Notes under the pieces: generated by a model
The model's database searches: none
The model's input: the letters and a program-made list of their open reading frames with translations, nothing else
Told to the model about the DNA's origin: nothing
Part shown: one piece after another, positions 2,532 through 42,521 of the stretch
Position numbering within the stretch: position 1 is the first letter of the stretch
How the letters are laid out: each line of letters starts with the position of its first letter
Sequence record: OP177727.1
DNA length: 64,000 bases
Strand: one strand, 5' to 3'
Source of the DNA: Escherichia phage pEC-M2929-1AR.1
Translations under genes and position numbers: made by a program

Positions 2532-2549
2532 AAAGCTCCTAGTTGAATT

Positions 2550-2856: not shown

Positions 2857-2962
2857 AGCCTAGTTATGGAATCGAACCATATTTCGTATTTAGTTAGACA
2901 AAGCGGTCTAACATATTTTTCAGGCTTTGATGGCCTCGGAATTACCAAATACCCTACTAGGC
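2857..2962 (-). ncRNA. oversized tRNA-like RNA (about 106 nt)
   Basis: Perfect 7-bp acceptor-like pairing (GCCTAGT/ACTAGGC) and canonical T arm (TATGG-TTCGATT-CCATA) enclose a 74-nt interior containing hairpin GTTAGAC-CGCTTTG-GTCTAAC. Confidence 0.35.
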
Positions 2963-2964
2963 GT

Positions 2965-3050
2965 TGGTGCAAGTGGAGGGATTCGAACCCTCAATCATTT
3001 AAGCGTTGCGTTTTAAGCACAATGTGTATCACCAATTCCACCACACTTGC
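2965..3050 (-). tRNA. tRNA-Leu, anticodon UAA (type II)
   Basis: Acceptor GCAAGTG/CACTTGC, anticodon arm TTGTG-CTTAAAA-CGCAA, long variable arm, T arm GAGGG-TTCGAAT-CCCTC. Confidence 0.6.
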
Positions 3051-3081
3051 ATATAGGAGATGCATAGCATCTCCTTTTAAA

Positions 3082-3157
3082 TGGTGGTTCCCCAGGGTTA
3101 CAATCCCTGCCCTCGACACTTATGAGGTGTGCGCTCTCGTCAGTGAGCTATGGAACC
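3082..3157 (-). tRNA. tRNA, anticodon CAU (Met-type)
   Basis: Acceptor GGTTCCA/GGGAACC, D arm GCTC-ACTGACGA-GAGC, anticodon loop CTCATAA, T stem CAGGG/CCCTG with atypical loop ATTGTAA. Confidence 0.5.
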
Positions 3158-5638: not shown

Positions 5639-5709
5639 AGTTATGTCTCCTTGTTTGTTAATGTGGGAGTATCTTACTAAGCATACTCCCTATTGTCAAC
5701 ACTTATTAT

Positions 5710-8445: not shown

Positions 8446-8636
8446 TGTTCCTTATTTATTCAGGTAAAGCCAAATACATGCAAGGTGTGAAGCGTGTAGA
8501 AGTAGTAGATACTGTAACTATAGGAAAATCCTTTATTCTTTATTTGTTTTATATCAATGGAGAAAGATTTGCTGTTTCTAAGAAGTTGGTAGATAATGGT
8601 AAAACTTGGAAAGAAGAGAAACAGGAAGGGGGTTGA
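8445..8636 (+). CDS. hypothetical protein (63 aa)
   Basis: ORF track; ATG overlaps upstream stop (TAATG). Confidence 0.45.
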   Translation: MFLIYSGKAKYMQGVKRVEVVDTVTIGKSFILYLFYINGERFAVSKKLVDNGKTWKEEKQEGG

Positions 8637-8637
8637 T

Positions 8638-8980
8638 AGTGGCTAAAATTCTTTGGTTAGATGATTTAAGAGATCCTAAAGATTATGGTTATGAGGATGC
8701 TATTTGGTTAAAATCTTTTGAGGATTGGTTATCTTTTGTTTCAGATGAAGATAATTTCAATAATATCTCAGAGATACACTTCGATAATGATCTTGGAGAA
8801 GATCAGGAAGGATATCATGCATTCTTAGACGTAGAATGTATGTTGTATGCGGGTGAATGGGATGCTCTTAAGACTATCTATGTCCATACATCAAACCCTT
8901 CTGCTGCTGGTAAATATATGTTAGCTAAGGAAAATTTTATTTCATCCTATGGTGTTGAAATTAAACGTGTTAACTATTAA
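8638..8980 (+). CDS. hypothetical protein
   Basis: Track ORF 8606-8980; probable GTG start at 8638 after GGAAGGGGG. Confidence 0.45.
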
Positions 8981-8989
8981 GGAGGTGTT

Positions 8990-9136
8990 ATGCTTTATGT
9001 TATTTGGATAGATGAAGGGGATGGGTTTTATATATACAAACACACTAACCATTGGCCCGATGTAGAAAAAGCACTTGCAACTTTTGAAGATTGCTTTTAC
9101 GATATACATACAGACGAAGAGTATGAAGAAAATTGA
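8990..9136 (+). CDS. small hypothetical protein (48 aa)
   Basis: Hand-translated MLYVIWIDEGDGFYIYKHTNHWPDVEKALATFEDCFYDIHTDEEYEEN; AAGGAGGTG RBS; below ORF-track cutoff. Confidence 0.45.
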   Translation: MLYVIWIDEGDGFYIYKHTNHWPDVEKALATFEDCFYDIHTDEEYEEN

Positions 9137-9495
9137 TGTGCGCTACTAATCAACATGATATTTGTTACCAACCTCTTACTTGGATTGGTGAGGATCACTA
9201 TGCTCAACGTGTTATAGTATGCGCTGCGAATAAGTATATTCTCAACAATGGCGAAGAGTTAATTATTCCTTGTGTTAGGCATGCAAATCCTGTACTATCT
9301 GCACAACTTAATGTTTTAAAAGATGCAGGATTGATTGATAAACTGTTTTGCTTACCTGATAATCAAGGGTTTATTGATCAGTATTATAACTGGTGGAGTC
9401 GCAAAGATGCTTATATCATTGCAGATAATGCCAAACAAATTAATTATGAAAGAAATGGTCACGACAGTGAACTATTCAGCGAGGGATTATACTAA
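9133..9495 (+). CDS. hypothetical protein (120 aa)
   Basis: ORF track; overlapping stop/start with neighbours. Confidence 0.5.
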   Translation: MMCATNQHDICYQPLTWIGEDHYAQRVIVCAANKYILNNGEELIIPCVRHANPVLSAQLNVLKDAGLIDKLFCLPDNQGFIDQYYNWWSRKDAYIIADNAKQINYERNGHDSELFSEGLY

Positions 9496-10046
9496 TGTTT
9501 ATTACAAGTGATTTGCATTTTATGCACAAACGTATCCGAGAGTTTGCTCCTGAATATCGCCCGTGGGAAGATATGGAGCATATGACAGAAGCACTGATCG
9601 AAGCATGGAATAAATGTGCCACAACACCAGGAGTAAAGATGTACCATCTTGGGGACTTCTGTTTCGGGACTGAAGAAGATACCCGTAAAATTGCTTCACG
9701 TCTTCAAGGTGATATTACTTACTGTGTTGGGAACCATGATTACAGCAAACACCGAGAAGTGCTTGCAGAATATGGTGAGGTTGTGTATTATGACGAAGTG
9801 AAATATCAGAAACTGTTCTTCGTCTTAAGTCATTATCCTATGGCTTCCTGGAATAAACAAGGACATGGATCAATCATGCTACACGGGCACTCTCACGGAT
9901 CATTCCCTGATCATTTGTATGGGAAAATGTTGGATGTTGGTTGGGACGCACACGGAAAAATCTTGCATTTTGACGAAATCATCTCTATTATGGATAAACG
10001 TGATATTGTTGTTGTAGACCATCATAAGATAATCAAAGGAGATTAA
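9495..10046 (+). CDS. calcineurin-like metallophosphoesterase (candidate RNA/DNA 3'-phosphatase)
   Basis: Motifs DLHF, GDFCFG, GNHD, HGHSHG typical of the metallophosphoesterase superfamily. Confidence 0.7.
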   Translation: MFITSDLHFMHKRIREFAPEYRPWEDMEHMTEALIEAWNKCATTPGVKMYHLGDFCFGTEEDTRKIASRLQGDITYCVGNHDYSKHREVLAEYGEVVYYDEVKYQKLFFVLSHYPMASWNKQGHGSIMLHGHSHGSFPDHLYGKMLDVGWDAHGKILHFDEIISIMDKRDIVVVDHHKIIKGD

Positions 10047-10047
10047 G

Positions 10048-10980
10048 GTGGCTAAGTTCAATTGTGATGACCTGATTGCAAAAGGTTTAGTGCATAAAAA
10101 AGAAGTTAAATCTGGAGAGTATGCTGGTCTTGCTGTACTTAAATACAAAAACAATGTATTCTGGGATAACTTGTGGAACGTTGACAAACGACTTCTAGAT
10201 TGTCGTGGGTTGGTTGTTGACTCAGAAGATAATGTTGTTATTTGGCCTTTTACTAAAATCTTTAATCGTTTTGAGAATGGTACAGATCTTCCAGCAGACC
10301 AGCTTGTAGATGCTGTCCGTAAAGTAAACGGTTTTATGGCATCTGTAGGTGTGTACAAAGGGCAACTTATTGTATCAACAACAGGGAGCCTAGAGTCAGA
10401 TTTTGCAACTCTTGCCAAGAACCATATTGTTTCCGAGTGTGATGACATAGAATATTTCATTAAGTGGACAGAAAGTGCAAAAGCAACTTTCCTTTTTGAA
10501 ATCTGTGATCCTTCTGATCCACATATTGTTGAAGAAGAACCAGGTGCATACTTAATTGGAGCAAGAATTCAAAATGATGATGGGACAAGTTTCATGCTAC
10601 CTGAAGGTGTGCTCGATGGGATTGCATCTATTACAAAATTTAAACGTCCTGAAGTTTATCCGATGATTAAATTTTCAGATGTTGTTGAAATGTCTAAACA
10701 TTGTAAGCACGAAGGGTTTGTTGTTCGTGAAACAAACTATCCGTTTAACTTGCTGTTAAAGATTAAGTCACCATACTATCTTGCTAAGAAATTCCTTATG
10801 CGTGGTGGCAATAAGAAGTGGGATATGATTTGGGACAACCCAAAAAATGCTAAACAAATTGTTGACGAAGAATATTATACTTTGCTAGAATGGCTTCGAA
10901 ACAACTTTACTAAGACTCAATGGGCTGCTTTAGATCCACAAGAGCGACGTAAAGAAATAGAAAACTTCTTTGGAGGCTAA
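10048..10980 (+). CDS. ATP-dependent RNA ligase-like nucleotidyltransferase
   Basis: Covalent nucleotidyltransferase motifs: KVNG (motif I), FLFEICDP (III), EGFVVRE (IV), LLLKIKSP (V). Confidence 0.6.
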   Translation: MAKFNCDDLIAKGLVHKKEVKSGEYAGLAVLKYKNNVFWDNLWNVDKRLLDCRGLVVDSEDNVVIWPFTKIFNRFENGTDLPADQLVDAVRKVNGFMASVGVYKGQLIVSTTGSLESDFATLAKNHIVSECDDIEYFIKWTESAKATFLFEICDPSDPHIVEEEPGAYLIGARIQNDDGTSFMLPEGVLDGIASITKFKRPEVYPMIKFSDVVEMSKHCKHEGFVVRETNYPFNLLLKIKSPYYLAKKFLMRGGNKKWDMIWDNPKNAKQIVDEEYYTLLEWLRNNFTKTQWAALDPQERRKEIENFFGG

Positions 10981-11385
10981 ATGAAACAACTTATCATTTT
11001 ACGTGGTGTTTCAGGTGCAGGTAAATCTACAGTAGCAGAAATTATTTCTGAAGGTTATTGGCCTATCTGTGAGGCAGATCAATATCATTACACAGAAAGT
11101 GGTGTTTACGATTGGAAGCCAGAGAATGTAGGTAAAGCACACGCATGGTGTCAGAGTATTGTTCGTGATGCTATGGCATCTAATATTAAAAAGATTATTG
11201 TCTCTAACACTTCAACCACAGAGAAAGAACTTAAACCTTATTTTACTCTTGCTGAAGAGTTTGGTTATCAAGTTATCTCCTTAGTTGTTGAAAATAGGCA
11301 CGGTAACGACTCAATTCATGAGGTTCCACAACATACTCGTGATCAGCAAGAGAAACGTCTTCGCAGTTCACTTAAGTTACAATAA
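10981..11385 (+). CDS. P-loop kinase (polynucleotide 5'-kinase-like)
   Basis: Walker A GVSGAGKST near N-terminus, about 134 aa; directly follows the ligase with ATGA overlap. Confidence 0.55.
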   Translation: MKQLIILRGVSGAGKSTVAEIISEGYWPICEADQYHYTESGVYDWKPENVGKAHAWCQSIVRDAMASNIKKIIVSNTSTTEKELKPYFTLAEEFGYQVISLVVENRHGNDSIHEVPQHTRDQQEKRLRSSLKLQ

Positions 11386-11394
11386 GGAGAGTGT

Positions 11395-11715
11395 ATGGAA
11401 ATTTATTCTGGTGAAGGTAAGTATTTTACAGTAGTCGATAATGGTGAAATTATTATTTATCGCTACGGAAGTGAGTGGAGGAACGAGACAGGAGACGGCT
11501 ATATCTTATCTTTGCTCCGTTTGATTAATGATCTTACGGAAGAACTTGAAGAAACAAAACGTTCATATGATGATCAAGTAGATTCATTAGAAAACATTAT
11601 TTCAGATCTAAATGAAGAAGTTTGTTATTTGAGTGGACAAGTTTCAGAGTTAACACTGGAATGTGAAGATTTAGGTGATGTTATTGCAGATTTAAATGAA
11701 CGTCTTAAGGATTAA
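11395..11715 (+). CDS. hypothetical acidic protein with predicted coiled coil
   Basis: ORF track; GGAGAG RBS upstream. Confidence 0.5.
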   Translation: MEIYSGEGKYFTVVDNGEIIIYRYGSEWRNETGDGYILSLLRLINDLTEELEETKRSYDDQVDSLENIISDLNEEVCYLSGQVSELTLECEDLGDVIADLNERLKD

Positions 11716-11718
11716 TAT

Positions 11719-11943
11719 ATGAGTACAGCTATCTATGTTAAAGGTGTAAGCGAAGATCAACAAATGTTATTCTCATTTGGTGAGAATACTGAAATGGAAG
11801 ATATGTTTAATGATATCCTTGATGCTCTTTCTTCGGAAGGGTTCACAATGATTACATACTTTATGGCAACATCTTCTGAATACGTTGATACAGATCTTGA
11901 AGATTTGATGGAAGAGATTCAAACTCTTGTGTATAATTGGTAA
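11719..11943 (+). CDS. hypothetical acidic protein (74 aa)
   Basis: ORF track. Confidence 0.45.
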   Translation: MSTAIYVKGVSEDQQMLFSFGENTEMEDMFNDILDALSSEGFTMITYFMATSSEYVDTDLEDLMEEIQTLVYNW

Positions 11944-11951
11944 GGGTAACT

Positions 11952-12140
11952 ATGACATTTATTGAAGAACTAACGAGAATTGCAAACGCACCTAACAGTA
12001 GCGAAGATCCTTACTTTATGGTGGATGATTACACTGGTGGTAATATTGATGATGCCTATGAACTAGGCAGACTACACGGTGAAATTGAAATGGCTAAATG
12101 GGTTCTTTCGCAACTGGAGGTTAAAGATGAAACAAACTAA
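11952..12140 (+). CDS. hypothetical protein
   Basis: Track ORF 11937-12140; ATG at 11952 preceded by AAGGGTAACT. Confidence 0.4.
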   Translation: MTFIEELTRIANAPNSSEDPYFMVDDYTGGNIDDAYELGRLHGEIEMAKWVLSQLEVKDETN

Positions 12141-13242
12141 TCCTACATTGTATGGTAAAACTTCTACAGGTAAAATTAAACAGTGGTCAGTCTATACCGA
12201 AGGTAGTGTTGTAACTGTTGCTCATGGTCAATTAGGTGGAAAGATTACTAGCAAATCTTATACAGCAGAACCTAAAAATATTGGTCGCTCAAATGAAACA
12301 ACAGCAGAAGAACAAGCTGAAATAGAAGCTCTTGCCAAATGGACAAAGCAACTTAAGAATGGGTATTATAAAACAAAAGAGGAAGCTGAAAACCATGTTC
12401 CTTCCACACCCATGAAATGTCAGGATTATAAAGATTATGCTGATCGTGTTTTGTTCCCAGGTTATGCACAGTATAAATTGAATGGTCTACGTTCAATGAT
12501 TAACATGCAAGGTGAATGTTTATCTAAAGCTGGGGAGGTATATAAACTTCCACCTCACTGGAAAGAAATTCCAACCTTCATTAAAGAAGTAGTTGGTCAT
12601 CCTCTTGACGGTGAAGTTTTTGCTGGTTTGGGTGTCCTTAGCCTTCAACAAATTAATAGTGCGTGGAAAAAGCATAATGCTAACACTCCGCTTCTTAAAT
12701 ACTATGTATATGATGTTCCTGTACCATCTGTACCATTTGAGAAGAGGGTTGAAGTTTTGGCTGCTCTAAAAGAAGTAGTTGAAGATAAAGGTTTAGATGA
12801 ACTTATTTGTGTAGTGCATACAGAGTACATTGAAAACCAAGAGCAGTTTGATGCATTCTATGCAAAAGCTCTGCGTGAGAAAGCTGAAGGTGTTGTTTAT
12901 CGTAATGCACAAGGTGTTTACGAGTTTGATAAACGTTCTTATGATGTTATTAAACGTAAACCACGTCAGACACTTGAAGTTAAGGTGGTAAGTGCAAAAC
13001 GTGATAAAAATGGTGACGGGGTATTGACAGGCGAGATGGAAAATGGTAAAGTAGTCGAATTCCTGATGCGTAAGGATTCAGATGAAACCATTAACTATCG
13101 TAAAGAAGAAAATGCTTTGACACTTATTGGTCAATTTGTTGAAATTGAGTACGAAGAATTTTCAGACGAAGGTATTCCTACCAAGCCTGTTGGGGTACGT
13201 GTACGTAAGATGATTCCAGGTACTTGGGAACCAGCAGAGTAA
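12127..13242 (+). CDS. ATP-dependent DNA ligase-like nucleotidyltransferase
   Basis: Motif I KLNG, motif IV EGVVYR, motif V VIKRKP; N-terminal extension; ATG at 12127 preceded by GGAGG. Confidence 0.6.
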   Translation: MKQTNPTLYGKTSTGKIKQWSVYTEGSVVTVAHGQLGGKITSKSYTAEPKNIGRSNETTAEEQAEIEALAKWTKQLKNGYYKTKEEAENHVPSTPMKCQDYKDYADRVLFPGYAQYKLNGLRSMINMQGECLSKAGEVYKLPPHWKEIPTFIKEVVGHPLDGEVFAGLGVLSLQQINSAWKKHNANTPLLKYYVYDVPVPSVPFEKRVEVLAALKEVVEDKGLDELICVVHTEYIENQEQFDAFYAKALREKAEGVVYRNAQGVYEFDKRSYDVIKRKPRQTLEVKVVSAKRDKNGDGVLTGEMENGKVVEFLMRKDSDETINYRKEENALTLIGQFVEIEYEEFSDEGIPTKPVGVRVRKMIPGTWEPAE

Positions 13243-13251
13243 GAGGTAAAT

Positions 13252-13431
13252 ATGGTATTAGTAACATTTCTTATGATGTTAATTGCTATTGCAATTATAA
13301 TGTTAGCCTCGTTTCCAGTGAACAAATGGTACTGCAATTTTTGTAGATTTGTTGTTTTCCTCTGTGCTGGGGCGTATATGGGCGAATCGGTAGTTCGCAT
13401 TAGTGTTTTTTTAGAACAATATTTTAAATAA
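13252..13431 (+). CDS. small membrane protein (59 aa)
   Basis: Hand-translated hydrophobic ORF MVLVTFLMMLIAIAIIMLASF...; AAGAGG RBS; below track cutoff. Confidence 0.4.
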   Translation: MVLVTFLMMLIAIAIIMLASFPVNKWYCNFCRFVVFLCAGAYMGESVVRISVFLEQYFK

Positions 13432-13440
13432 GGAGAAACA

Positions 13441-14163
13441 ATGATCGAGAATTTTTTCAAACAAGTAAAAGTGGACAATAGCTTCTTTATCAAGGCTGCC
13501 GATCAAATTGTTGCTTGGAATGCTAAGGCACGTGGTGGCGTAACCCCAGAATTTACTCAAGAGATGTTTGAAGCTCAACTTTCTTTTGTACGAGAAGAAC
13601 TAAAAGAGTTCCAAGCAGCAGCACAGGAAAATGATCACGTTGAATTACTTGATGCAGCAGCAGATATTTTTGTGGTAGCATCCTACCTGGCATTTATGTT
13701 CTTTGGTAAAGAAGGTGTTGATAAAGCTCTGGAAATGCCGACAGGAGATGTTCTGGCAGAAAACATTTACGACGTTATCATTGAATTTGATAAAATGATA
13801 GAAAATGACTTGCAATTTGCCCTAATGTCTCTTACACTTACACGTATGGCACGAGATACTTTGGTACGTTCTGTTTATAACGAGAAGAAGGTTATGCGTG
13901 AAGTGTTGAATAGCAATGAGTCCAAGTATCCTACCAAAAAGCAACTCCTGGCTATTTGGGAAACTAAGGATATTGTTGAAGCTCTTGAAAAAGAGTGTGA
14001 TGCTATCGAGATGCGAAGCAAAGATCGTGCAGAAGGTTCTTATACTGGAGTACATGCTGTATATAACGAAGTTCAAAAGGTATACGTATTCTTTGATGAC
14101 AAAGGTAAAATTATGAAGCCATCTACCTTTGTTAAACCTAATATCGCAGCAATCATTGCTTAA
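13441..14163 (+). CDS. MazG-like all-alpha NTP pyrophosphohydrolase (tentative)
   Basis: EExxE...E..D pattern (REELKEFQAAAQENDHVELLDAAADIF) resembling MazG/dCTPase family; GGAGAAACA RBS. Confidence 0.35.
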   Translation: MIENFFKQVKVDNSFFIKAADQIVAWNAKARGGVTPEFTQEMFEAQLSFVREELKEFQAAAQENDHVELLDAAADIFVVASYLAFMFFGKEGVDKALEMPTGDVLAENIYDVIIEFDKMIENDLQFALMSLTLTRMARDTLVRSVYNEKKVMREVLNSNESKYPTKKQLLAIWETKDIVEALEKECDAIEMRSKDRAEGSYTGVHAVYNEVQKVYVFFDDKGKIMKPSTFVKPNIAAIIA

Positions 14164-26454: not shown

Positions 26455-26652
26455 ATGATGCTAGATCGACTGATCAATGCTCCTCGCGTAACAGTAAGTC
26501 CAAAAACATTTGCATCACTTTTAGAAGATGCTAGAGAGGTTTATAACTTTACTGAAGAAGAGATTCCTGTTCCTGTTGAAAAAGGTTCCAGATGGTTGTT
26601 TTATGAAGGTATTATTTTTACTGAAGGAAATAATTGGAAGGAGACTAAATGA
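26455..26652 (+). CDS. hypothetical protein
   Basis: Track ORF 26362-26652 trimmed to ATG at 26455 after AAGGAGGATAG. Confidence 0.45.
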   Translation: MMLDRLINAPRVTVSPKTFASLLEDAREVYNFTEEEIPVPVEKGSRWLFYEGIIFTEGNNWKETK

Positions 26653-27638
26653 AATACTTAGTAACAGGTGGTTTAGGCTTTATTGGAAGTGCAGTAGTTC
26701 GTTTCCTGGCTAAAAATACTAAGAATGATATTTACGTTATAGATAAATGGGGTTACGCTTCAGACCCTAGAAATTTATCAGAAACACCTAATGTAAAGTT
26801 TTGTCGTGTTGACTTGACAAATGCTCAGTTAACTGCTAAGATTGTGGCAGATGTTAATCCAGATTATATAATGCATCTTGCAGCAGAAAGTCACGTAGAT
26901 AATTCAATAGCATCACCGAGTGTTTTTATAAATTCAAATATTGTTGGAACATTTAATCTTCTAGAAGCTGTTCGTTTAATGGGAGATAAATCAAATCTTA
27001 AAATGTTTCATCATATTTCAACAGATGAAGTGTATGGTGATATGGAAGAAGGGGATTATCCGTTTACAGAACAGAATCCTTATAAACCAAGTAGTCCATA
27101 TGCTGCATCTAAAGCTGCAAGCGATCATTTGGTAAGAGCGTGGCATCGTACTTATGGTATTCCGACAGTTATAACAAATTGTTCAAATAATTTTGGAGCA
27201 TATCATCATCCAGAAAAACTAATACCTAAAACGATAACAAATATCTTGATGCATAAACCAATCCCTGTTTATGGTAATGGTCTTCAAGTAAGAGACTGGT
27301 TATACGTTGACGATCACGCAGAAGCATTACACCTAGTAGTAACTAAAGGCAAATCTGGAGAAACATATAATATTGGGAGCAGAAACCCTAGAACTAATAT
27401 TGATGTAATCTATATGATTTGTGATTATATGGATGCGGTGTATCCATCTGAAACAGATGCTTGTAGCCTCATTGAGATGGTTACAGATAGACCTGGGCAT
27501 GATTTAAGATACGAAGTGAATCCTTATAAGATTGAAAAGGAATTAGGGTGGAAAGCTAAAGGCACATTTGAAGAAAAACTTTATTCAACCATTGATTGGT
27601 ATGTAGATAACAAAGAGTGGTGGGAAAATAAAGTTTAA
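26649..27638 (+). CDS. rmlB: dTDP-glucose 4,6-dehydratase
   Basis: N-terminal [14 protein letters not shown]-binding motif, catalytic YAASKAASD (YxxxK), about 329 aa. Confidence 0.85.
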
Positions 27639-27646
27639 GGAGGAGT

Positions 27647-28516
27647 ATGAAAGGTATTATCTTAGCAGGTGGTAGTGGAACAAGACTTTACCCAGTTACT
27701 AAAGGGGTTAGTAAACAACTATTACCAATTTACGATAAGCCTATGATTTATTATCCACTCTCTGTCCTAATGCTTTCTGGAATTAGGGAAATACTAATAA
27801 TTACAACACCAGAAGATCAAATTAATTTTGTAAATCTTCTAGGTGATGGTTCTTCTTTTGGTATTTCCCTACAGTATGCAATACAAGAAAGCCCGAAAGG
27901 TTTAGCAGAAGCGTTTATTATTGGTGAGAGCTTTATTGGCGAAGATTCTGTAGCACTTGTGCTAGGTGATAATTTATTCTTTGGTCAGAGTTTTGGTAGC
28001 ATTTTAGATTCTGCTAAAGAATATATTGAAAAGAATGGTGGAGCTAATATTTTTGGGTATCACGTAAATGATCCTGAAAGATTTGGTGTTGTTGAGTTTG
28101 ATTCTGAAGGTACAGTGGTGAGTATTGAAGAAAAACCAAAAGCACCAAAAAGCAACTACGCAATCACAGGCTTGTACTTTTACGATAATTCTGTTATACA
28201 GAAAGCTAAGAGCGTTAAACCTTCTGCTAGAGGGGAGTTAGAGATTACAGATATAAATGAGATGTACTGGAAAGAAAAGACTTTACGTGTCTGTAAACTA
28301 GGAAGAGGTTTCACTTGGCTGGATACAGGAACACATGAAAGTCTTATGGAAGCATCTCAATTTGTTCATGCAATAGAAAAGCAACAAGGTATGAAGGTTG
28401 CATGCCTAGAAGAGATTGCTTTTAAAAATGAATGGATTACTTTAGACTCTGTAAAAAGTTCTGGAGAGGTTTTAAGTAAAACAGACTACGGTAAGTATTT
28501 ACTTAAATTAAAATAA
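27647..28516 (+). CDS. rmlA: glucose-1-phosphate thymidylyltransferase
   Basis: [18 protein letters not shown] nucleotidyltransferase signature, 289 aa. Confidence 0.9.
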
Positions 28517-28528
28517 AGGGGGAATTAA

Positions 28529-29083
28529 ATGATTCAAGCAACAAAAATCGAAGATTTGTTGATCATTCAACCTGACGTTTACGGAGATGAACGTGGCTTT
28601 TTCTTAGAAAGTTTTAATCAGGCTTTATATGATCAATACATAGGTAAACAAAACTTTGTCCAGGATAACCACTCACGTTCTATTCGAGGAGTTCTACGTG
28701 GGCTTCATTTTCAAAAGAAAAACCCACAAGGGAAGTTAGTACGTTGTGTTCGTGGTGAAGTTTATGATGTTGCTGTAGATATTAGGGTTGGTAGTCCGAC
28801 ATTTGGAGAATGGGTAGGTGTTCTTTTATCTGAAAAGAATAAAACACAATTTTGGATTCCTCCTGGTTTCGCTCATGGCTTTGTTGTGATTAGCGACATT
28901 GCTGATTTTGAATATAAATGTACAGAATATTACGATCCGACTTCAGAGTGTAGTCTTGCGTGGAATGATCCAGATATCAATATAGATTGGGGTTTTGATT
29001 TAATCTTTAATGATATTAATTTTAAACCTATCTTGTCACAAAAAGATCAGCAAGCCAAAACACTAAAGGAGATCATATTTTGA
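28529..29083 (+). CDS. rmlC: dTDP-4-dehydrorhamnose 3,5-epimerase
   Basis: Cupin-fold epimerase with RGLHFQ signature, 184 aa. Confidence 0.85.
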   Translation: MIQATKIEDLLIIQPDVYGDERGFFLESFNQALYDQYIGKQNFVQDNHSRSIRGVLRGLHFQKKNPQGKLVRCVRGEVYDVAVDIRVGSPTFGEWVGVLLSEKNKTQFWIPPGFAHGFVVISDIADFEYKCTEYYDPTSECSLAWNDPDINIDWGFDLIFNDINFKPILSQKDQQAKTLKEIIF

Positions 29084-29910
29084 CAAAATTTTTAATCTTT
29101 GGTTCAAAAGGTCAATTAGGACAGTCTTTGGCAAAAGTTGCGCCCGAAGATGTTATTTTGATTGAAGCAAGTGATATAGACATTACCAACTTTAAAGATG
29201 TTATGAATAGTCTTGTACAGCACGTGCCTGATGTTGTTGTGAATTGTGCAGCTTACACGGCAGTAGATAAAGCTGAAGAAGATGTTAACACTTGTATAAA
29301 TGTTAATGCATACGGCGCAACAAACATTGCCAAAGCATGTAATGATTTACTGATACAGTTTGTACATATTTCAACAGACTATGTTTTTGATGGGCATGTT
29401 GCTGGCACAGAAGAGAGTAAAACAAACCCCTTGAACACCTACGGTTACAGTAAACAATTAGGTGAAACTTTAGTACAAGCAGTTTGTCCTACAGCACTTA
29501 TTATCAGAACAGCTTCTGTTTATAGTGAATTTGGACATAACTTTTTGAAAACTATGTTGGAACGCTACAACGGTGGTCAAAAAGAATTTAATGTAGTATG
29601 TGATCATTTGTCATGTCCTACTTATGCACCTGATCTTGCAGAAACAATTTTTAAACTTGTAAAAGATGGTGTAAATAGTAAAATTGTACACTATGCAGGT
29701 GCAGATTATATTTCTTGGTATGATTTTGCACGTAAGATATTTCTTGTTATAGATTTATCTGTTACAGTTAATCCTGTATCTGCTTCAACCTATAATTCTA
29801 AAGCAGTCAGACCAGCAACATCTTATTTAAAAACAGATCCTACTTTAAATCCGCGAAGTGTTGATAGCGGTATTGTAAGAACTTTAACTATACTTTTAAA
29901 CAAGGAGTGA
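29080..29910 (+). CDS. rmlD: dTDP-4-dehydrorhamnose reductase
   Basis: Short-chain reductase fold, FGSKGQLG N-terminus and YGYSK (YxxxK) catalytic motif; completes rmlBACD. Confidence 0.75.
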   Translation: MTKFLIFGSKGQLGQSLAKVAPEDVILIEASDIDITNFKDVMNSLVQHVPDVVVNCAAYTAVDKAEEDVNTCINVNAYGATNIAKACNDLLIQFVHISTDYVFDGHVAGTEESKTNPLNTYGYSKQLGETLVQAVCPTALIIRTASVYSEFGHNFLKTMLERYNGGQKEFNVVCDHLSCPTYAPDLAETIFKLVKDGVNSKIVHYAGADYISWYDFARKIFLVIDLSVTVNPVSASTYNSKAVRPATSYLKTDPTLNPRSVDSGIVRTLTILLNKE

Positions 29911-31661: not shown

Positions 31662-32156
31662 ATGACGCTAATTGAGATTGATCGCAATGGTATTGATGAA
31701 TGCTATCAAGCTGGCTTAGTTAAGCCGAATGAGTTTAGACAGATTTATATTGACAAGATTGAAAAAGAAATATCTCTTCGTTTAGAGAACATGACAACTT
31801 TGCAAAAAGTTCAGATGTTTTTTAGTTGGTTAAAAGGAGAGGATTGGCTAACTAAATATTACCAGGAATTATCTGATAGTCAAGAAGGCTTGTTTGAGTG
31901 TATAATAAATGTAGCTGGGTCTAATTCAGAATTACTCCTGATTGATGAAGAAGATTCTAAACTTCTTTTTCTTAGCAGTATCTTTCACAAGAAATCTATG
32001 TTAGTAAGAAATTGCAGTGATTTACTAAATCATCCACTAACAAGAACCAATAAAATTCTTGTGGATAAAGAAACACTAAGAGCTATTGATTACCTACGTA
32101 AGTATGTAAGCGGTGGTAAAGCAGTCCTTAAAACACTACAGGAGGAAGTACAATGA
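31662..32156 (+). CDS. hypothetical protein (164 aa)
   Basis: ORF track; GGAGG RBS. Confidence 0.5.
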   Translation: MTLIEIDRNGIDECYQAGLVKPNEFRQIYIDKIEKEISLRLENMTTLQKVQMFFSWLKGEDWLTKYYQELSDSQEGLFECIINVAGSNSELLLIDEEDSKLLFLSSIFHKKSMLVRNCSDLLNHPLTRTNKILVDKETLRAIDYLRKYVSGGKAVLKTLQEEVQ

Positions 32157-32806
32157 CAACAATTATTGCAACACATAACAAAATTCTATCTGACGGTAAA
32201 GTAACAGTAGGTAATCGAGTAGACACTTTAAATTTCAAGAAAGTGCGTAAAATTGGGGATTACCTTGTTGGTGGTGCAGGACGTCTGTCTTCTATCCTGA
32301 CTTTCTTTTCTTGGTTCGAACAAAACTTACAGTGCCAGGCAGCACAAGAGACAATCCCAGGTTTGGTGATCCAGTCAGATCCTGATAAAGAAGATGAAGA
32401 GTTTGTGGCATTGGTTGTTCACCCAGACGGTAAAATTTATATGCACGAGGGTAATAATCCAACGCGAGCATATCCTTTAACTGAAGATTACTATGCTGTT
32501 GGTAGTGGGGCAGATTTTGCTTTAGCAGCTTTAGACGCTGGGGCAACCCCAGAAGAAGCGATGGAAGTTGCAAAACTACGAGATGCTTTTTCAGGCGGTG
32601 AAACTTTTGTCGAAGAGATCGAAGAACAACTGGAGCTAACAGCGGAAGATATTCTGAACTTCAGCAAGGAGCAACTAATTAGTATGCTGTTGACTGGTGA
32701 TCCTGATAGTGATGAAGCTGAAAGTATTTTAGCAGAGATGAAAGAATCACAAGAAAAAGTATTGACAGTCTCTGAAAAACTTGATAAAGTATCCTCTGAT
32801 AATTAA
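32153..32806 (+). CDS. HslV-like Ntn-hydrolase peptidase with acidic C-terminal extension
   Basis: MTTIIA (Thr right after Met), GGAGRLSSILTFFSWFE and AVGSGADFALAAL blocks parallel E. coli HslV (TTIVSV..., AGFAGGTADAFTLFELFE, AIGSGGPYAQAAA). Confidence 0.55.
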   Translation: MTTIIATHNKILSDGKVTVGNRVDTLNFKKVRKIGDYLVGGAGRLSSILTFFSWFEQNLQCQAAQETIPGLVIQSDPDKEDEEFVALVVHPDGKIYMHEGNNPTRAYPLTEDYYAVGSGADFALAALDAGATPEEAMEVAKLRDAFSGGETFVEEIEEQLELTAEDILNFSKEQLISMLLTGDPDSDEAESILAEMKESQEKVLTVSEKLDKVSSDN

Positions 32807-34278: not shown

Positions 34279-34941
34279 ATGAAGTTTGTACTGTATCATC
34301 GACTTTCTAAGAAGAAACAACAAGGCAACCAGTATGGTATAGAGTCACAGGAAGCAGATATCCAACGCTTCCTGGATTCACAAGAAAATTATACTATTGT
34401 AGGTAGCTTTGCAGAGTTTTATTCTGGTAAAGGCGATTGGAAGCAACGTAGAGAGCTTGTAAAAGCTGTTAATCTTTGCAAAGAAACAGGTGCTACACTT
34501 GTTGTTGCTAAGGTTGACCGTCTGGGACGTAACACAGCTTCTGTTGCAACCTTGTTAGAGATGATTAATGTACGGATAGCCACTATGCCCTCCGCTGAAA
34601 ATATGATAATAAATATTTTAGCAGTTCTGGCAGAAGAAGAGGCTCGTGCAATATCTGATCGTGTTAAGAAGAGCCTTAAGGTAGCAAAAGCGAAGGGAAC
34701 GCTTCTTGGTGCAGCAAACCCTAAATACAAAAGAACAGATTATACGAAAACGGAAGAAGCAAAACGCTCAAAAGAGTTTGCACTTTCTTTAAAAGATTCT
34801 TTAGTTGCATACAGAGCTTGTAAAACGCCATATATGACGATTGCAAAGCATCTGAATGAATCAGGAAAGAGAACTATTCGTGGGAGTTTGTTCGATGCCA
34901 AAGCGGTACAACGTCTTTGTGCAAAATTGAATATTAAATAA
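34279..34941 (+). CDS. small serine recombinase (resolvase/invertase family)
   Basis: N-terminal catalytic domain YHRLSKKKQQ (Ser near position 10) and VVAKVDRLGRN; 220 aa. Confidence 0.65.
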   Translation: MKFVLYHRLSKKKQQGNQYGIESQEADIQRFLDSQENYTIVGSFAEFYSGKGDWKQRRELVKAVNLCKETGATLVVAKVDRLGRNTASVATLLEMINVRIATMPSAENMIINILAVLAEEEARAISDRVKKSLKVAKAKGTLLGAANPKYKRTDYTKTEEAKRSKEFALSLKDSLVAYRACKTPYMTIAKHLNESGKRTIRGSLFDAKAVQRLCAKLNIK

Positions 34942-35748: not shown

Positions 35749-36075
35749 ATGAAAATAACGACAGAACAGGCTTTAATAGACAAAGGAAGGGAAATCTTAG
35801 AAAGTCATTTGGAGGATATTCAAAGGACTCCAGGGTATCTCGGCTGGCGTATACAAGAAGCCGTCGATTTTCTACCCCGCAAAAATAAAGAGATTGAGGT
35901 AAGATCTCTATTCCTCCTTGTTAAAGTAGATGGTGACGCTATATACAAAGATGTAGCGTCTCACATTGAACAAATAGAAGAAAAAGCCTACAAAGAATTT
36001 GCAGATCTTGTTGTAGAACATAATATAGAAGGTAAAGTTAATATCTTTATACTTATGGATTTTGAGGAGAGTTGA
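35749..36075 (+). CDS. hypothetical protein (108 aa)
   Basis: ORF track; AAGGAGAAGGGG RBS. Confidence 0.5.
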   Translation: MKITTEQALIDKGREILESHLEDIQRTPGYLGWRIQEAVDFLPRKNKEIEVRSLFLLVKVDGDAIYKDVASHIEQIEEKAYKEFADLVVEHNIEGKVNIFILMDFEES

Positions 36076-36818
36076 TGCTAGTATATCAAGAAATTAGTGT
36101 AAAAGATGATCAAGACCTGTTTATTATTGGTGATTTACATGGTTGCTTTGATTTATACCAGAAAGGTGTTAATACTTTAGGTATCCGAGATCAAGATGTT
36201 GTTGTATCTTTAGGAGATCTTACAGATCGCGGCAAGCAGAATTTTCGTTGTACCGTTGAATTCACCAGAAAGCTAAATCGCTATGCTATTCGTGGAAATC
36301 ACGAAGATATGATGATTAAAGGGTTGCTAGAAGGTGATAGGCGATATTACGAATGTTGGTTTCAGAACGGAGGCCATACAGTTCTAAATGAGTGTGGAGA
36401 AGAAGGTGCAACTGCTCTTGCTTTGATGCTAGAAGACTTACCTGTTGTACTTGTTGTCAATTATCGTAATATGAAACTAGGCTTTATTCACGGAGGGTAT
36501 CCTTCAGTTTTGGAACATTTACCAGTGACAGAAGTTTTGCCATTTTGTTTGAATATGGATAAAGAGCAAGTTTCTCGATTCACAGAATCTTTAATGTGGG
36601 ATCGTGATATGATAGATTGCGCACTTGAAGGGATTCTTCTTCCTAGAGTTTCAGGAGTAGATTATGTATTTCACGGGCATTCTTATGTTCCTAAACCTGT
36701 AATTAGCAGTAATAGGGTATATATGGATACAGGATCTTGCTTCAATGGTAATTTAACCTTTGCATATTTTGATGATTCAAATACGTTACAATTTTATTCT
36801 ACTCTAGAGGAGGACTAA
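36072..36818 (+). CDS. Ser/Thr protein phosphatase (PPP-family metallophosphatase, lambda-PPase-like)
   Basis: GDLHG, GDLTDRG and RGNHE metallophosphatase signature motifs in canonical order. Confidence 0.75.
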   Translation: MMLVYQEISVKDDQDLFIIGDLHGCFDLYQKGVNTLGIRDQDVVVSLGDLTDRGKQNFRCTVEFTRKLNRYAIRGNHEDMMIKGLLEGDRRYYECWFQNGGHTVLNECGEEGATALALMLEDLPVVLVVNYRNMKLGFIHGGYPSVLEHLPVTEVLPFCLNMDKEQVSRFTESLMWDRDMIDCALEGILLPRVSGVDYVFHGHSYVPKPVISSNRVYMDTGSCFNGNLTFAYFDDSNTLQFYSTLEED

Positions 36819-37148: not shown

Positions 37149-37727
37149 ATGAGCGATTTATTCTACACAGGTGTTGGTAGCAGAGATATTACAGACGAAG
37201 AATGGGACACTATGGTAGCTGTTGCAAAATGGTTATCTACATGGTTCATTTTGCGATCTGGTAAAGCAGAAGGTGCAGATTCCGCATTTGAATGCGGGGT
37301 ATATGATAGTGGAAACAACACAAAGAAAGAAATATACATTCCTTGGCCTTCGTTTAAAGGTAATGAGATAGAGGGAGAGGTTATTGTTCTTGACAGACCA
37401 GATAGTGTAAACTATGCTCTGACCTTGCAATATGCAAAAGAATTGCATCCGGCTTGGGACAGATTATCTCAAGGTGCTAAAAAATTGCATCAAAGGAATA
37501 TCCACCAAGTTCTTGGCAAAGATCTTGAGAATCCAAAACCGTCTTGTTTTCTTTTAGCTTGTGCAAATACAGATAAAAATGGAGATCCTTTGGGTGGTAC
37601 AAGAACAGCTTGGATGTTGGCTAAAAAGTTTAATGTTCCTTGTTTTAATATTCGAGGTAAAAGTAAAAAACAAATCTTCGAATTTATTAAACCTATTTTA
37701 GAGGAGAATGGTCTTGTCCAGAAATAA
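37149..37727 (+). CDS. DprA/SLOG-like Rossmann-fold protein (tentative)
   Basis: GVGSRDIT, SGKAEGADSAFE and QRNIHQVLG blocks resemble DprA/Smf-type Rossmann domain; ATG at 37149 after AAGGAGAAAACC. Confidence 0.35.
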   Translation: MSDLFYTGVGSRDITDEEWDTMVAVAKWLSTWFILRSGKAEGADSAFECGVYDSGNNTKKEIYIPWPSFKGNEIEGEVIVLDRPDSVNYALTLQYAKELHPAWDRLSQGAKKLHQRNIHQVLGKDLENPKPSCFLLACANTDKNGDPLGGTRTAWMLAKKFNVPCFNIRGKSKKQIFEFIKPILEENGLVQK

Positions 37728-40096: not shown

Positions 40097-40708
40097 ATGA
40101 CTCAAAAAGTTGCATATCAAGTAGATCGTGAAGATGGTGAAGGTAGTGTTGTAGTTTTTGATACACATGGTCTTGCAGCAAGACGCAAAGGCGCTTGTAT
40201 GCTGGATATTGGTGGTGAAGATGAATACTGCACTGTACGTAGAGTAAAAGAATTTGATCAATACGCTGAAAAAGGTTTTGTACCTGCGAAAGCACTATTA
40301 GAAGCTGGATGGTGGATACCTAGCGCACATGATTATGATATTTTGGAGTCAGATACAGACGATTTTAACAGTGAGAATTTTGTTTTTTCTCTGGATGAAA
40401 AATGCGTTTGGAAAGATTGGGATGAAATGGAACGCCATGCTTATTTTATAAACGAAGCATTAGATCGTAAAACTTGGTTTGAAAATACAGTTAAAGCAGC
40501 GTATCCTCAATTTACTTTTACAGAGTTTTGGGGTGGCCCACACCATATTACCCACGTAGCATACTTCGAGTTCCCAGGCTCACGCTATAAAGGTACTGTC
40601 TATTGGGATTGGGAAGAGGACAAAGAACCTTCTGCTCAAGACTTCCGTTGCTATGTTTGTCAAGGTGATCAAGAAGCACTTGACAACTACCTTAAAAGTC
40701 TGGTATAA
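40097..40708 (+). CDS. hypothetical protein (203 aa)
   Basis: ORF track; GGGGG RBS. Confidence 0.5.
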   Translation: MTQKVAYQVDREDGEGSVVVFDTHGLAARRKGACMLDIGGEDEYCTVRRVKEFDQYAEKGFVPAKALLEAGWWIPSAHDYDILESDTDDFNSENFVFSLDEKCVWKDWDEMERHAYFINEALDRKTWFENTVKAAYPQFTFTEFWGGPHHITHVAYFEFPGSRYKGTVYWDWEEDKEPSAQDFRCYVCQGDQEALDNYLKSLV

Positions 40709-40724
40709 TCCGTAAAACTTAACC

Positions 40725-40750
40725 AAAGCCCCAACTAGGGGCTTTATTTG
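40725..40750 (+). terminator. terminator-like hairpin (AAAGCCCCAACTAGGGGCTTTATTTG)
   Basis: GC stem-loop with short T tract between 40097 gene and next gene. Confidence 0.45.
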
Positions 40751-40762
40751 TCTGGAGGATAT

Positions 40763-41317
40763 ATGGGTTTTGATGATATGTTATTATATGAGGAGGCTTG
40801 TGTGAAAGAAGCTATGGCTTTACCAGTTTTATCTATTGATATTACAACAGTAGACACTTTTTCAGATTGTGAAACGTGTGGATCGTATTCATCTATTGTA
40901 CATGAAGTCAGTGGGGATTTAGGCACTTACGAAGATGGAGATTATGCAAGTTGTTTAGGTGATAATCGAGATGGTGAAGTGGCGAATGTTGCAAACTGGA
41001 TTGCTTCTAAGTTAAAAGAAAGAAATCGTCCGTTCCCTAATCTTCTTACACCAGAAGCTATGCTTAAAGCTGAAGAAGAGATGTATGATTATGGTGATAA
41101 AGTAGCTCATGATTACAATGATCCTAATTATAAAAAATTGAGTGATAAGTATTGGGAACTAGCTAATGCTTATGATAAATACTACTCTACAGAAAACATT
41201 GTTAAATTGTTTTTAGATTTTGGAGTAGAAATTAATTGGGATTTCGAAGAGGAAGAGCGTTACGACGCATCTTCTTGGGATGATGATTACGAAGAGGATA
41301 TTGAATGCGAAGAGTAA
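40763..41317 (+). CDS. hypothetical acidic protein (Asp/Glu-rich C-terminus)
   Basis: Track ORF 40748-41317 trimmed to ATG at 40763 after GGAGGATAT; C-terminus EEEERYDASSWDDDYEEDIECEE. Confidence 0.5.
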   Translation: MGFDDMLLYEEACVKEAMALPVLSIDITTVDTFSDCETCGSYSSIVHEVSGDLGTYEDGDYASCLGDNRDGEVANVANWIASKLKERNRPFPNLLTPEAMLKAEEEMYDYGDKVAHDYNDPNYKKLSDKYWELANAYDKYYSTENIVKLFLDFGVEINWDFEEEERYDASSWDDDYEEDIECEE

Positions 41318-42117
41318 TTTTTGTCAGTGGTGCAGGTTTAAGTGCAGACAGTGGGATTCGAACATTCCGAACAGACACAGACAGTGGTCGTGCTTTATGG
41401 GAAGAATATGATTTAGAAGAGGTCTGCGATATTGGAGCTTTCCAAGCAGGTTATCGTGTGAGAACATCTCCAGATCTTCCAGTGGTTGGTGGTGTAGACG
41501 AAAATGGTATGGATTTGTATGCCAAAACACACGAATTTTATAACAAAAGACGTGTTGAGCTTAAAGATGTACAACCTAATGCTGCACATATTCAAATAGC
41601 AAAGTGGTTTAAGGAATATCCTAACCAAGTAATAAACTTGACAACAAACGTTGATGATCTACTAGAGCGAGCAGGTGTAGACAGAGATTCGGTTATTCAC
41701 GTGCACGGATATCTTCCTGAAGTAGTTTACCGTATGCATCCTGGAGATTACAAAACACTGGTAGATATTGGTTACAACAGCATAAACATAGATGATTATA
41801 ACTGGGTGAAGCCTAATGTTGTATTTTTTGGTGAGGCTGCACCTTTGTATGCAGATATGGCTCACTTGTTCGATACTTTGACCATGCAAGATTTGGTTGT
41901 TGTAGTAGGATGTTCAAACCAAGTTATCAATTTTAATTGGGAATTATTCCCTGCACTTAATATGGGTACAAAAATGATTGTTGTTAACCCAGGAATTAAT
42001 TACGAAGAAACTCTTCTTTACGAAGATAGAGGAGTCTTTGTTTATCGAGAAAAAGCCGCAGATGCTTTTAGCAATCCTGCTTTCATAAAAATGATAGAAG
42101 ATCATTTGACTAAATAA
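41305..42117 (+). CDS. Sir2-family (sirtuin-like) NAD-binding protein lacking zinc-ribbon cysteines
   Basis: GAGLSADSGIRTFR, TTNVDDLLERAG, HVHG, VVFFGE and VVVVGCSNQV blocks in sirtuin order; no CxxC pairs between the His and FGE blocks. Confidence 0.7.
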   Translation: MRRVIFVSGAGLSADSGIRTFRTDTDSGRALWEEYDLEEVCDIGAFQAGYRVRTSPDLPVVGGVDENGMDLYAKTHEFYNKRRVELKDVQPNAAHIQIAKWFKEYPNQVINLTTNVDDLLERAGVDRDSVIHVHGYLPEVVYRMHPGDYKTLVDIGYNSINIDDYNWVKPNVVFFGEAAPLYADMAHLFDTLTMQDLVVVVGCSNQVINFNWELFPALNMGTKMIVVNPGINYEETLLYEDRGVFVYREKAADAFSNPAFIKMIEDHLTK

Positions 42118-42123
42118 CTTAAC

Positions 42124-42148
42124 CAAGGGGGCGAAAGCCCCTTTTCTT
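42124..42148 (+). terminator. intrinsic terminator (AAGGGGGCGAAAGCCCCTTTTCTT)
   Basis: GC stem, GAAA loop, T tract directly after Sir2 stop. Confidence 0.6.
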
Positions 42149-42161
42149 ATAGGAGAATATT

Positions 42162-42419
42162 ATGACCACAGAACAAATCGTTAAAGACCATTTTATGATG
42201 CACTACGTTTATTACTTCAATAACAATCAACAGAAAGGTGAGGGATTTTGTTATCTATCCGCACAACAAGGTTTTGGTATCCGTCAAGCAGATATTAACG
42301 GGGCAGTGGCTGGGATTACAAAAGGCTTGGTTGAAAACCTTAAAGACAATGTTGTTGTTGTCCCAACGTGCATCTCTTATCTCTCAACCTGCCCTGAAGA
42401 AGATTTTATGCATTCCTAA
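42162..42419 (+). CDS. hypothetical protein (85 aa); last gene of plus-strand array
   Basis: ORF track; AGGAGAAT RBS. Confidence 0.5.
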   Translation: MTTEQIVKDHFMMHYVYYFNNNQQKGEGFCYLSAQQGFGIRQADINGAVAGITKGLVENLKDNVVVVPTCISYLSTCPEEDFMHS

Positions 42420-42484: not shown

Positions 42485-42521
42485 CAAAAGCCCCTAGAAG
42501 CGATTCTAGGGGCTTTATTTT
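42485..42521. terminator. bidirectional intrinsic terminator at convergence of plus and minus gene blocks
   Basis: AAAAGCCCCTAGAAGCGATTCTAGGGGCTTTATTTT: 8-bp GC stem flanked by A-run and T-run. Confidence 0.7.

Follow-up and report, generated by a model that had tools for sequence, protein, structure and literature searches.

We analysed a 64,000-nucleotide (64-kb) stretch of the genome of Escherichia phage pEC-M2929-1AR.1 (sequence record OP177727.1), referred to below as the window, with attention to positions 40097-42419, where four genes all lie on the plus strand. The third of these encodes a 270-amino-acid protein of the Sir2, or sirtuin, family, a group of enzymes that use nicotinamide adenine dinucleotide (NAD+). 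It follows a gene for a strongly acidic 184-amino-acid protein, and this pair is bracketed by genes for a 203-amino-acid and an 85-amino-acid protein (Table 1). The region matches phi92/phAPEC8-like Stephanstirmvirinae, myophages of E. coli such as vB_EcoM_AMO3598, alia, ECGD1 and phi92, at 97-99.6% identity, and the GenBank records of near-identical phages already annotate the gene as a Sir2 NAD-dependent deacetylase. Several records labelled as Campylobacter phages (A150, A145, C3 and A110a) share 98.3% identity with this region from an E. coli phage, and their host labels are probably wrong. We are highly confident that the 270-amino-acid protein is a class III-derived phage sirtuin of the T5.102 family that has lost its zinc ligands.

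Profile, sequence and structure comparisons all place the protein in the Sir2 family. Pfam SIR2 (PF02146) matches at 80.9 bits against a cutoff of 24 (E value 1.5e-22), with no other Pfam family found and SIR2_2 among those absent, and PHROG 2162 matches with an E value of 1.9e-105. The NCBIfam CobB and deacylase models all match as well, far under their cutoffs (best 106.2 bits against 243). Among sequences in the PDB, E. coli CobB (1s5p) is the best match (E value 1.1e-18), followed by Sir2Af and SIRT5. An AlphaFold2 model built from 20 homologues has a mean predicted local distance difference test score (pLDDT) of 81 and a predicted template modelling score of 0.82, and its top Foldseek match is again CobB (E value 1.5e-17, target template modelling score 0.83), with Sir2Af1 and SIRT5 next. 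A reading of the DNA letters alone, here called the sequence-only reading, had likened the protein to bacterial defence NADases and ADP-ribosyltransferases more than to deacetylases. The comparisons upheld its call of a Sir2 fold and did not support this likeness: CobB, Sir2Af1 and SIRT5 come first, H134 and a YxxR motif are kept, and the protein stands apart from ThsA, DSR2 and SirTM. A defence-type SIR2 was rejected since PADLOC returned only a marginal 37-residue match (PDC-S65, E value 0.003), SIR2_2 does not match, and no defence SIR2 structure is among the top 50 structural matches. SirTM was set aside because the protein has HG and not QG, has no zinc domain and shows no macrodomain linkage; neither Pfam nor NCBIfam finds a macrodomain in the three neighbouring genes of the region.

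The NAD-binding blocks quoted by the sequence-only reading could all be located. They comprise GAGLSADSGIRTFR at residues 9-22, which opens with GAGxS at residues 9-13; TTNVDDLLERAG at 113-124, which holds the NxD motif at 115-117; HG at 134-135, within an HVHG stretch that supplies H134; and VVFFGE at 172-177. In sirtuins, CxxC...CxxC zinc ligands lie between HG and FGE. As that reading had also noted, these are missing here. C41 and C203 are the protein's only cysteines, and the interval from residue 135 to residue 171 has none. An alignment to zinc-bearing relatives puts Y142 and D148 where those have their first pair of ligands, and a gap where they have the second. In the AlphaFold2 model the former zinc ribbon is a beta-hairpin (residues 135-154) with a pLDDT of about 86-91. 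The CobB counterparts of Y79 and R82 are Y92 and R95 (numbering fixed through the I131C and Y92A mutant entries), the two residues that make up the acidic-acyl pocket of class III sirtuins. The protein thus has in common with CobB and SIRT5 the catalytic histidine, N-x-D, FGE and the Tyr/Arg acidic-acyl pocket, and differs from them in having no Cys4 zinc site, a threonine in place of the motif glutamine, a 24-residue variable insert at residues 47-70 and an overall identity of about 26%.

To place this loss among relatives, we surveyed the zinc module in the 135 full-length representatives nearest the query, taken from clusters at 50% identity. The zinc-module region holds no or one cysteine in 47 of the 135, and four or more in 79. 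H134 is present in every one of them and the motif asparagine is likewise invariant, while Tyr79 is found in 128/135 and Arg82 in 105/135. Apart from the ligand cysteines, the sole position that strongly discriminates zinc-less from zinc-bearing sequences is Q114T, within the motif TQN(I/V)D: 33 relatives combine threonine with the zinc-less state and 66 glutamine with the zinc-bearing state, against seven zinc-bearing sequences with threonine and nine zinc-less ones with glutamine. This coupling of zinc loss to a Gln to Thr change in the NAD+-binding motif is, as judged from the alignment, a minor new point. The one zinc-bearing close relative that we looked up is cellular; it lies on a Mollicutes-like contig and adjoins a lipoate ligase gene. 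Because the catalytic residues are kept, the ligands are lost and only Q114T otherwise discriminates, the phage proteins appear to be derived from cellular class III-type deacylases as a zinc-less branch whose active site is otherwise intact.

Within the phage clade (alignment A1), F21, R22, N115, D117, H134, F174, F175, E177 and N228 are invariant, as are Y79 and R82, and G176 is present in at least 90% of the sequences. For most of the set from F21 to N228, conservation reaches 85% or more among zinc-less and zinc-bearing relatives alike. The protein has an isoelectric point (pI) of 4.8, close to the clade median of 4.9. It is 56% identical to the Sir2 protein of Mydo, 52% to that of the T5-like phage DT571/2 and 49% to that of rV5, with an overall range of 48-57%, and by these alignments T5.102 and the rV5 and Mydo proteins are its orthologues. 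The clade of T5.102, rV5, Mydo and Serratia phage BF has in common with it a zinc-less small domain, TTNVD, YxxR and an invariant VINFNWELFP. More distantly, the Sir2/CobB proteins of the schizo-T4-like Vibrio phages KVP40, phiSt2 and phiGrn1 are 36-40% identical to the 270-amino-acid protein and are likewise reported to lack zinc ligands (PMC5107563).

Such genes are widespread. By tblastn, the Sir2 protein is found in 992 phage records, and its carriers include T5 and T5-like Demerecviridae (T5.102), Vequintavirinae (rV5 and Mydo), Stephanstirmvirinae, KVP40-like Vibrio phages and jumbo phages such as GAP32, 121Q and fHe-Yen9-04. In three T5-like phages, Eps7, INF11 and DT57C, the match comes in two pieces or as a 36-residue remnant, which suggests that in some lineages the gene has been interrupted or is decaying.

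At the locus itself, the start codon of the Sir2 gene lies 13 nucleotides ahead of the stop of the acidic gene, with a GAGGA Shine-Dalgarno sequence just upstream of the ATG. The overlap that the sequence-only reading had pointed out is therefore real and of a kind consistent with translational coupling. Its further claim, an operon with a clean terminator, stands in part. It fits the acidic/Sir2 pair, which is followed directly by a terminator-like hairpin, and it fails for 40097-42419 as a whole, which is not one simple operon. A sigma-70 promoter-like site with both hexamers perfect overlaps the 3' end of the 203-amino-acid gene, is kept in phages alia, nepoznato and EP57, and is the probable start of the acidic/Sir2 transcription unit. 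This site and the GC-rich hairpin behind it part the 203-amino-acid gene from the pair, and the 85-amino-acid gene lies beyond the Sir2 terminator. Given these positions of promoter and hairpins, the transcription unit is most likely the acidic gene plus Sir2. Farther downstream, a strong bidirectional terminator marks the convergence of plus- and minus-strand gene blocks. Terminator-like sites are abundant in the region, with seven found against 2.2 +/- 1.6 in shuffled sequences.

The stem of the hairpin between the promoter and the acidic gene recurs in nepoznato and EP57, built there from a different sequence, and the hairpin could be a terminator of the upstream gene or a structure in the 5' untranslated region. 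It lies within about 15 nucleotides downstream of the promoter and ahead of the ribosome-binding site of the acidic gene, so that the transcript would open with a terminator-like stem; promoter and stem are both conserved in Phapecoctavirus, where the stem has a different sequence. An 11-mer, AACTTAACCAA, occurs in exact copies at 40716-40726 and 42116-42126, immediately upstream of the hairpins that flank the acidic/Sir2 pair, and these are its sole exact copies within the 64 kb. The early hairpin and the bidirectional terminator have an exact 15-mer, CTAGGGGCTTTATTT, in common. The 11-mer is not conserved in phage nepoznato. These repeats could reflect a common terminator module or the remnant of a cassette insertion.

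Table 1. Features of the 270-amino-acid sirtuin locus and of related genes elsewhere in the window.
Feature	Position	Strand	Basis and remarks
Nampt-family gene, 576 amino acids	3905-5638	-	Pfam NAPRTase, 131.5 bits
Prs-family gene, 296 amino acids	5710-6603	-	Pfam Pribosyltran, Pribosyl_synth
cREC	8606-8980	+	PF20274, 53.9 bits
Metallophosphoesterase	9495-10046	+	Pfam
Rnl1-type RNA ligase	10048-10980	+	Pfam
Small P-loop kinase without phosphatase domain	10981-11385	+	Pfam
ATP-dependent DNA ligase	12079-13242	+	Pfam
MazG	13441-14163	+	Pfam
203-amino-acid acidic protein, PHROG 8514	40097-40708	+	PHROG E value 1.2e-91; no Pfam match; syntenic upstream neighbour
Sigma-70 promoter-like site	40680-40709	+	TTGACA, 18-nucleotide spacer, TG-TATAAT; hexamers 12/12, extended -10 TG
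GC-rich hairpin	40725-40745	+	8-pair stem, -15.8 kcal/mol; between promoter and acidic gene
Acidic 184-amino-acid protein, PHROG 9509	40763-41317	+	ATG at 40763, stop at 41317
Sir2-family protein, 270 amino acids, zinc-less	41305-42117	+	Pfam PF02146, PHROG 2162, AlphaFold2/Foldseek
Intrinsic terminator-like hairpin	42125-42143	+	6-pair GC-rich stem, then TTTTCTT; folding z-score -2.4; directly 3' of Sir2
85-amino-acid protein, PHROG 15991	42162-42419	+	PHROG E value 1.7e-52; syntenic downstream neighbour
Strong bidirectional terminator	42487-42516	both	13-pair stem on both strands; -22.1 kcal/mol, z-score -4.4

The outer genes of the region are stable in position. Homologues of the 203-amino-acid protein lie at the equivalent place in nepoznato (67% identical) and EP57 (68%), and the 85-amino-acid protein has positional homologues in the same two phages. 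The acidic 184-amino-acid protein has a pI of 4.05 and a net charge of -33, of which -14 falls within its last 25 residues, in keeping with the poly-acidic C-terminus described by the sequence-only reading. Net charge ranges from -22 to -38 across its family, which conserves C36, C39, G40, C64, a helical core and a disordered C-terminal tail of Asp, Glu and aromatic residues; the tail ends in EEC in the Stephanstirmvirinae proteins. The family (PHROG 9509) is small, with 136 phage records by tblastn and 17 clusters in a profile search of 5.8 billion proteins, and its fold has no match outside the family. The sequence-only reading had suggested a DNA mimic or a partner; the comparisons gave evidence neither for nor against mimicry of DNA. 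Matches to PheRS_B1 (Pfam, E value 0.03) and L32 were under cutoffs and were disregarded.

How closely the acidic protein goes with Sir2 varies between lineages. Its gene adjoins Sir2 in both genera of Stephanstirmvirinae, and in that subfamily only; in Eneladusvirus it is not adjacent. In the Phapecoctavirus nepoznato, an HNH endonuclease-like gene (246 amino acids, L004:5477-6217) is inserted between the two. In EP57, whose record is 130 kb, the equivalent locus (L009:4001-4237) holds only residues 77-155 of the acidic protein and no Sir2. Here Sir2 and the two ends of the acidic gene seem to have been lost by natural deletion; from inspection of this locus alone, this is a hint that the genes are dispensable. 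The acidic family is found only in groups that carry Sir2, namely Stephanstirmvirinae, Eneladusvirus and the RaK2 group, whose relatives GAP32 and 121Q carry it, yet most Sir2-bearing phages are without the acidic protein (136 records against 992). We rejected an obligate partnership, given the absence of the acidic protein from T5-like, rV5, Mydo and Vibrio phages, the separated genes of Eneladusvirus and the intervening HNH gene of nepoznato. Because the family is confined to Sir2 groups and nevertheless missing from most Sir2 phages, partnership is possible only as a lineage-specific addition, and the acidic protein is best described as a lineage-specific co-expressed neighbour with a possible role as partner or regulator. 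That Sir2 is most likely co-transcribed with an acidic protein of unmatched fold is a second minor new point.

We next consider the wider gene context. An RNA-repair block spans 8606-14163, from cREC to MazG, and tblastn shows it to be syntenic with the blocks of Mydo and rV5, which hold Sir2 themselves. In Mydo the order is phosphoesterase, RNA ligase, cREC-like gene, kinase, small open reading frame, Sir2 and ATP-dependent DNA ligase, with MazG further on; in rV5 it is RNA ligase, cREC-like gene and Sir2. Here, Sir2 is instead found some 27 kb downstream of the block and behind a gene for a cytosine-5 DNA methylase. Its immediate neighbours are this methylase and three proteins of unknown function, with no RNA-end-healing or RNA-end-sealing genes among them. 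Thus the Vequintavirinae have their Sir2 inside the block of RNA ligase, kinase and DNA ligase, whereas here it is outside and coupled to the acidic protein. The location of Sir2 outside the RNA-repair block in Stephanstirmvirinae is a third minor new point.

The window also contains a Nampt-family and Prs-family pair at 3905-6603, which bears out the earlier suggestion that the genome encodes an NAD+ rebuilding module. In NARP1, the enzymes Adps and Namat rebuild NAD+ from ADP-ribose and nicotinamide (bioRxiv 10.1101/2024.02.11.579819). The phage pair has the two-gene architecture of NARP1, and the NCBIfam labels are those of ordinary Nampt and Prs, so that NARP1 is not distinguished from these. 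Sixteen tRNA genes on the minus strand (281-3157), three for tRNA-Met and one for tRNA-Lys(UUU) among them, lie directly upstream of the NAD+ rebuilding and RNA-repair genes.

Similar neighbours recur around other members of the family. One metagenomic zinc-less relative adjoins cREC and Metallophos, another sits between RlaP and NADAR, and a third overlaps PTH2. The metagenomic relative P0147 overlaps a NadR-like NMNAT/kinase gene with HAD_SAK_2 nearby, and relative P0159 has NAMPT about 600 nucleotides upstream. In T5-like contigs, Sir2 follows nrdA, phoH and nrdD. NAD+ salvage and RNA or tRNA end processing are thus the recurring themes of the Sir2 neighbourhood. The link to RNA ligase is partial. 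Sir2 occurs in 289 Salmonella phage records, most of them T5-like, and the Rnl1-type ligase in 15; conversely, Rnl1 occurs in 177 Pseudomonas and 124 Streptomyces phage records, and Sir2 in 11 Streptomyces records, with Pseudomonas outside its ten commonest genera.

Several other genes upstream of the locus drew our attention. The gene for a calcineurin-like phosphoesterase (36072-36818; Pfam Metallophos, 53 bits) precedes Sir2 by 4.5 kb. A gene at about 37149-37727 is DprA-like according to the annotation of phage alia and has no Pfam or NCBIfam match; the label may reflect a SLOG-type Rossmann domain. By position against the same annotation, 26649-29910 holds a four-gene dTDP-rhamnose pathway, and further unusual auxiliary genes are an HslV/proteasome-like peptidase (32153-32806) and a serine recombinase-like protein (34279-34941).

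What might this sirtuin do? Our tentative answer, drawn from sequence comparison and held at somewhat less than even confidence, is that it is a lysine deacylase, a function that we slightly favour over the removal of RNA 2'-phosphates. We rank it first because the residues needed are all conserved, the nearest relatives are deacylases and the link to NAD+ salvage is a natural one; that only Q114T, besides the cysteines, separates zinc-less from zinc-bearing proteins suggests that the basic chemistry is unchanged. Under this model, the acidic gene and Sir2 would probably be transcribed early from the consensus sigma-70 promoter. The stand-alone, NAD+-consuming sirtuin would bind NAD+, expel nicotinamide and pass ADP-ribose to a nucleophilic oxygen of a negatively charged substrate that Tyr79 and Arg82 hold in place, after which His134 would activate the ribose 2'-OH and complete the reaction. 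The most likely substrate would be an acyl-lysine, with succinyl-, malonyl- or glutaryl-lysine preferred over plain acetyl-lysine, and the targets would be host or phage proteins. The products, nicotinamide and ADP-ribose, could be recycled by the phage's own Prs-family/Nampt-family pair.

A number of observations pull the other way. The ligands are gone from the zinc module, on which classical sirtuins depend for their stability and their peptide cleft, and the near-universal glutamine of TQN(I/V)D is now threonine, which could mean a changed substrate or NAD+ geometry. The NCBIfam CobB models, as noted, fall well short of their cutoffs. Several independent lineages have Sir2 amid RNA-end-processing genes, an arrangement that a deacylase role leaves unexplained. 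Finally, in the literature searched for one, we found no biochemical assay of any phage sirtuin.

The gene neighbourhoods give rise to the principal alternative, which we consider possible though doubtful and rank closely behind the deacylase. In their 2022 study, Iyer, Aravind and colleagues delimited a separate sirtuin clade in phages, with V5, Mydo, Serratia phage BF and SP15 as its named carriers, and proposed from gene neighbourhoods a KptA-like role in RNA repair (PMC9503650). The sirtuin would then be an RNA 2'-phosphotransferase resembling Tpt1/KptA. The 2'-phosphate of a broken or religated tRNA, or of another RNA, would attack C1'' of NAD+, and the 2''-OH of ADP-ribose, activated by His134, would attack the phosphorus to yield RNA with a 2'-OH and ADP-ribose 1''-2'' cyclic phosphate. 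Together with the phage's cREC, kinase, phosphoesterase and Rnl1 ligase, this step would reverse the damage done by host anticodon nucleases. The hypothesis is thus already published for this clade, and it gains from the Mydo and rV5 gene orders, from the metagenomic relatives near cREC/Metallophos, RlaP/NADAR, HAD_SAK_2 and PTH2, and from the whole repair block kept here next to the cluster of 16 tRNA genes. The proposed reaction parallels that of sirtuins, and a phosphate could sit in the invariant Tyr/Arg anion pocket. Tpt1/KptA resembles the phage protein in its NAD+ use, its RNA-repair gene contexts and its two-step chemistry; its fold, however, is of the ADP-ribosyltransferase superfamily (Pfam PTS_2-RNA) and the fold here is of the sirtuin Rossmann type, so that Tpt1/KptA would be at most a functional analogue of the phage sirtuin.

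Set against this are the distance of about 27 kb between Sir2 and the repair block here, in an unrelated context, and the nrd and phoH neighbours of the T5-like genes, in phages that mostly lack an Rnl1-type ligase. Many Rnl1-bearing phage groups, Pseudomonas and Streptomyces phages among them, yield few Sir2 records. In kinase/phosphoesterase/ligase systems, the phosphoesterase removes 2'-, 3'- and cyclic phosphates. The repair block of this phage already has a metallophosphoesterase, which would remove such phosphates, so a Tpt1-like step is not required. An acidic protein, at pI 4.8, would be unusual as an RNA-binding enzyme, and residues of the peptide/acyl-lysine tunnel such as FGE are still invariant. 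We also favour the lysine deacylase because many Sir2-bearing phages appear to be without an Rnl1-type ligase.

A bolder form of the RNA model extends it to the family as a whole. The zinc-less phage sirtuins, T5.102 included, would be a convergent sirtuin-fold equivalent of Tpt1 and not protein deacylases; their Tyr/Arg pocket would bind RNA phosphate, and they would use NAD+ to remove 2'-phosphates or ADP-ribosylate RNA ends as part of a counter-defence island with the tRNA, NAD+ rebuilding and RNA-repair genes, with the acidic, aromatic-tailed neighbour of Stephanstirmvirinae occupying or gating the surface that binds nucleic acid. We regard this combination as unlikely.

Least probable of all, in our estimate, is that the protein is an NAD+ hydrolase, a macromolecular ADP-ribosyltransferase, or a binder or degrader of NAD+-derived immune signals that serves host takeover or counter-defence, with the acidic protein regulating or inhibiting it or serving as a partner that mimics nucleic acid: zinc loss is typical of defence SIR2 NADases, Sir2 is translationally coupled to a strongly acidic protein whose family is seen only in Sir2-carrying phage groups, one relative adjoins NADAR and the NARP1-like pair could rebuild NAD+ from ADP-ribose and nicotinamide, but there is no sequence or fold affinity to ThsA, DSR2, SIR2-HerA or SirTM, plain NAD+ hydrolysis and the phage's own NAD+ rebuilding genes would together make a futile cycle, and the acidic protein is missing from most Sir2-bearing phages, is encoded apart from Sir2 in Eneladusvirus and is separated from it by the HNH gene in nepoznato.

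The comparison with these NAD+-using systems can be made more precise. The defence proteins ThsA, DSR1/2, SIR2-HerA and SPARSA also have zinc-less, NAD+-using Sir2 domains; these are of the SIR2_2 family with fused or coupled sensor domains, whereas the phage protein is a stand-alone PF02146 domain of 270 residues. SirTM has QG for HG, retains the zinc domain and has links to a macrodomain and a GcvH-L operon (PMC4518038). The phage sirtuin resembles it in fold and in the proposal of NAD+ use other than deacetylation, and differs in having HG and no zinc site.

Much of this picture is established. Skliros et al. (2016) described the Sir2/CobB proteins of KVP40 and phiSt2 as lacking zinc ligands, treated them along with phage NAMPT and NMNAT, and proposed from modelling and transcript data only that deacetylation activates acetyl-CoA synthetase (PMC5107563). 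The gene, its zinc-less state, the link to NAD+ salvage and the mechanistic hypothesis are all already in the literature or in GenBank annotation, and the window adds little to published work. It does show that Sir2 can exit the RNA-repair block without being lost, and that a lineage-specific acidic protein is predicted to be co-transcribed with it. Roughly a thousand sequenced phages carry a member of the phage sirtuin family, among them T5, a model phage, and many phage-therapy candidates. If the family members are deacylases, these phages would directly rewrite host lysine acylation; if they remove RNA 2'-phosphates, the activity would be new for the sirtuin fold and would add a new arm to phage RNA repair.

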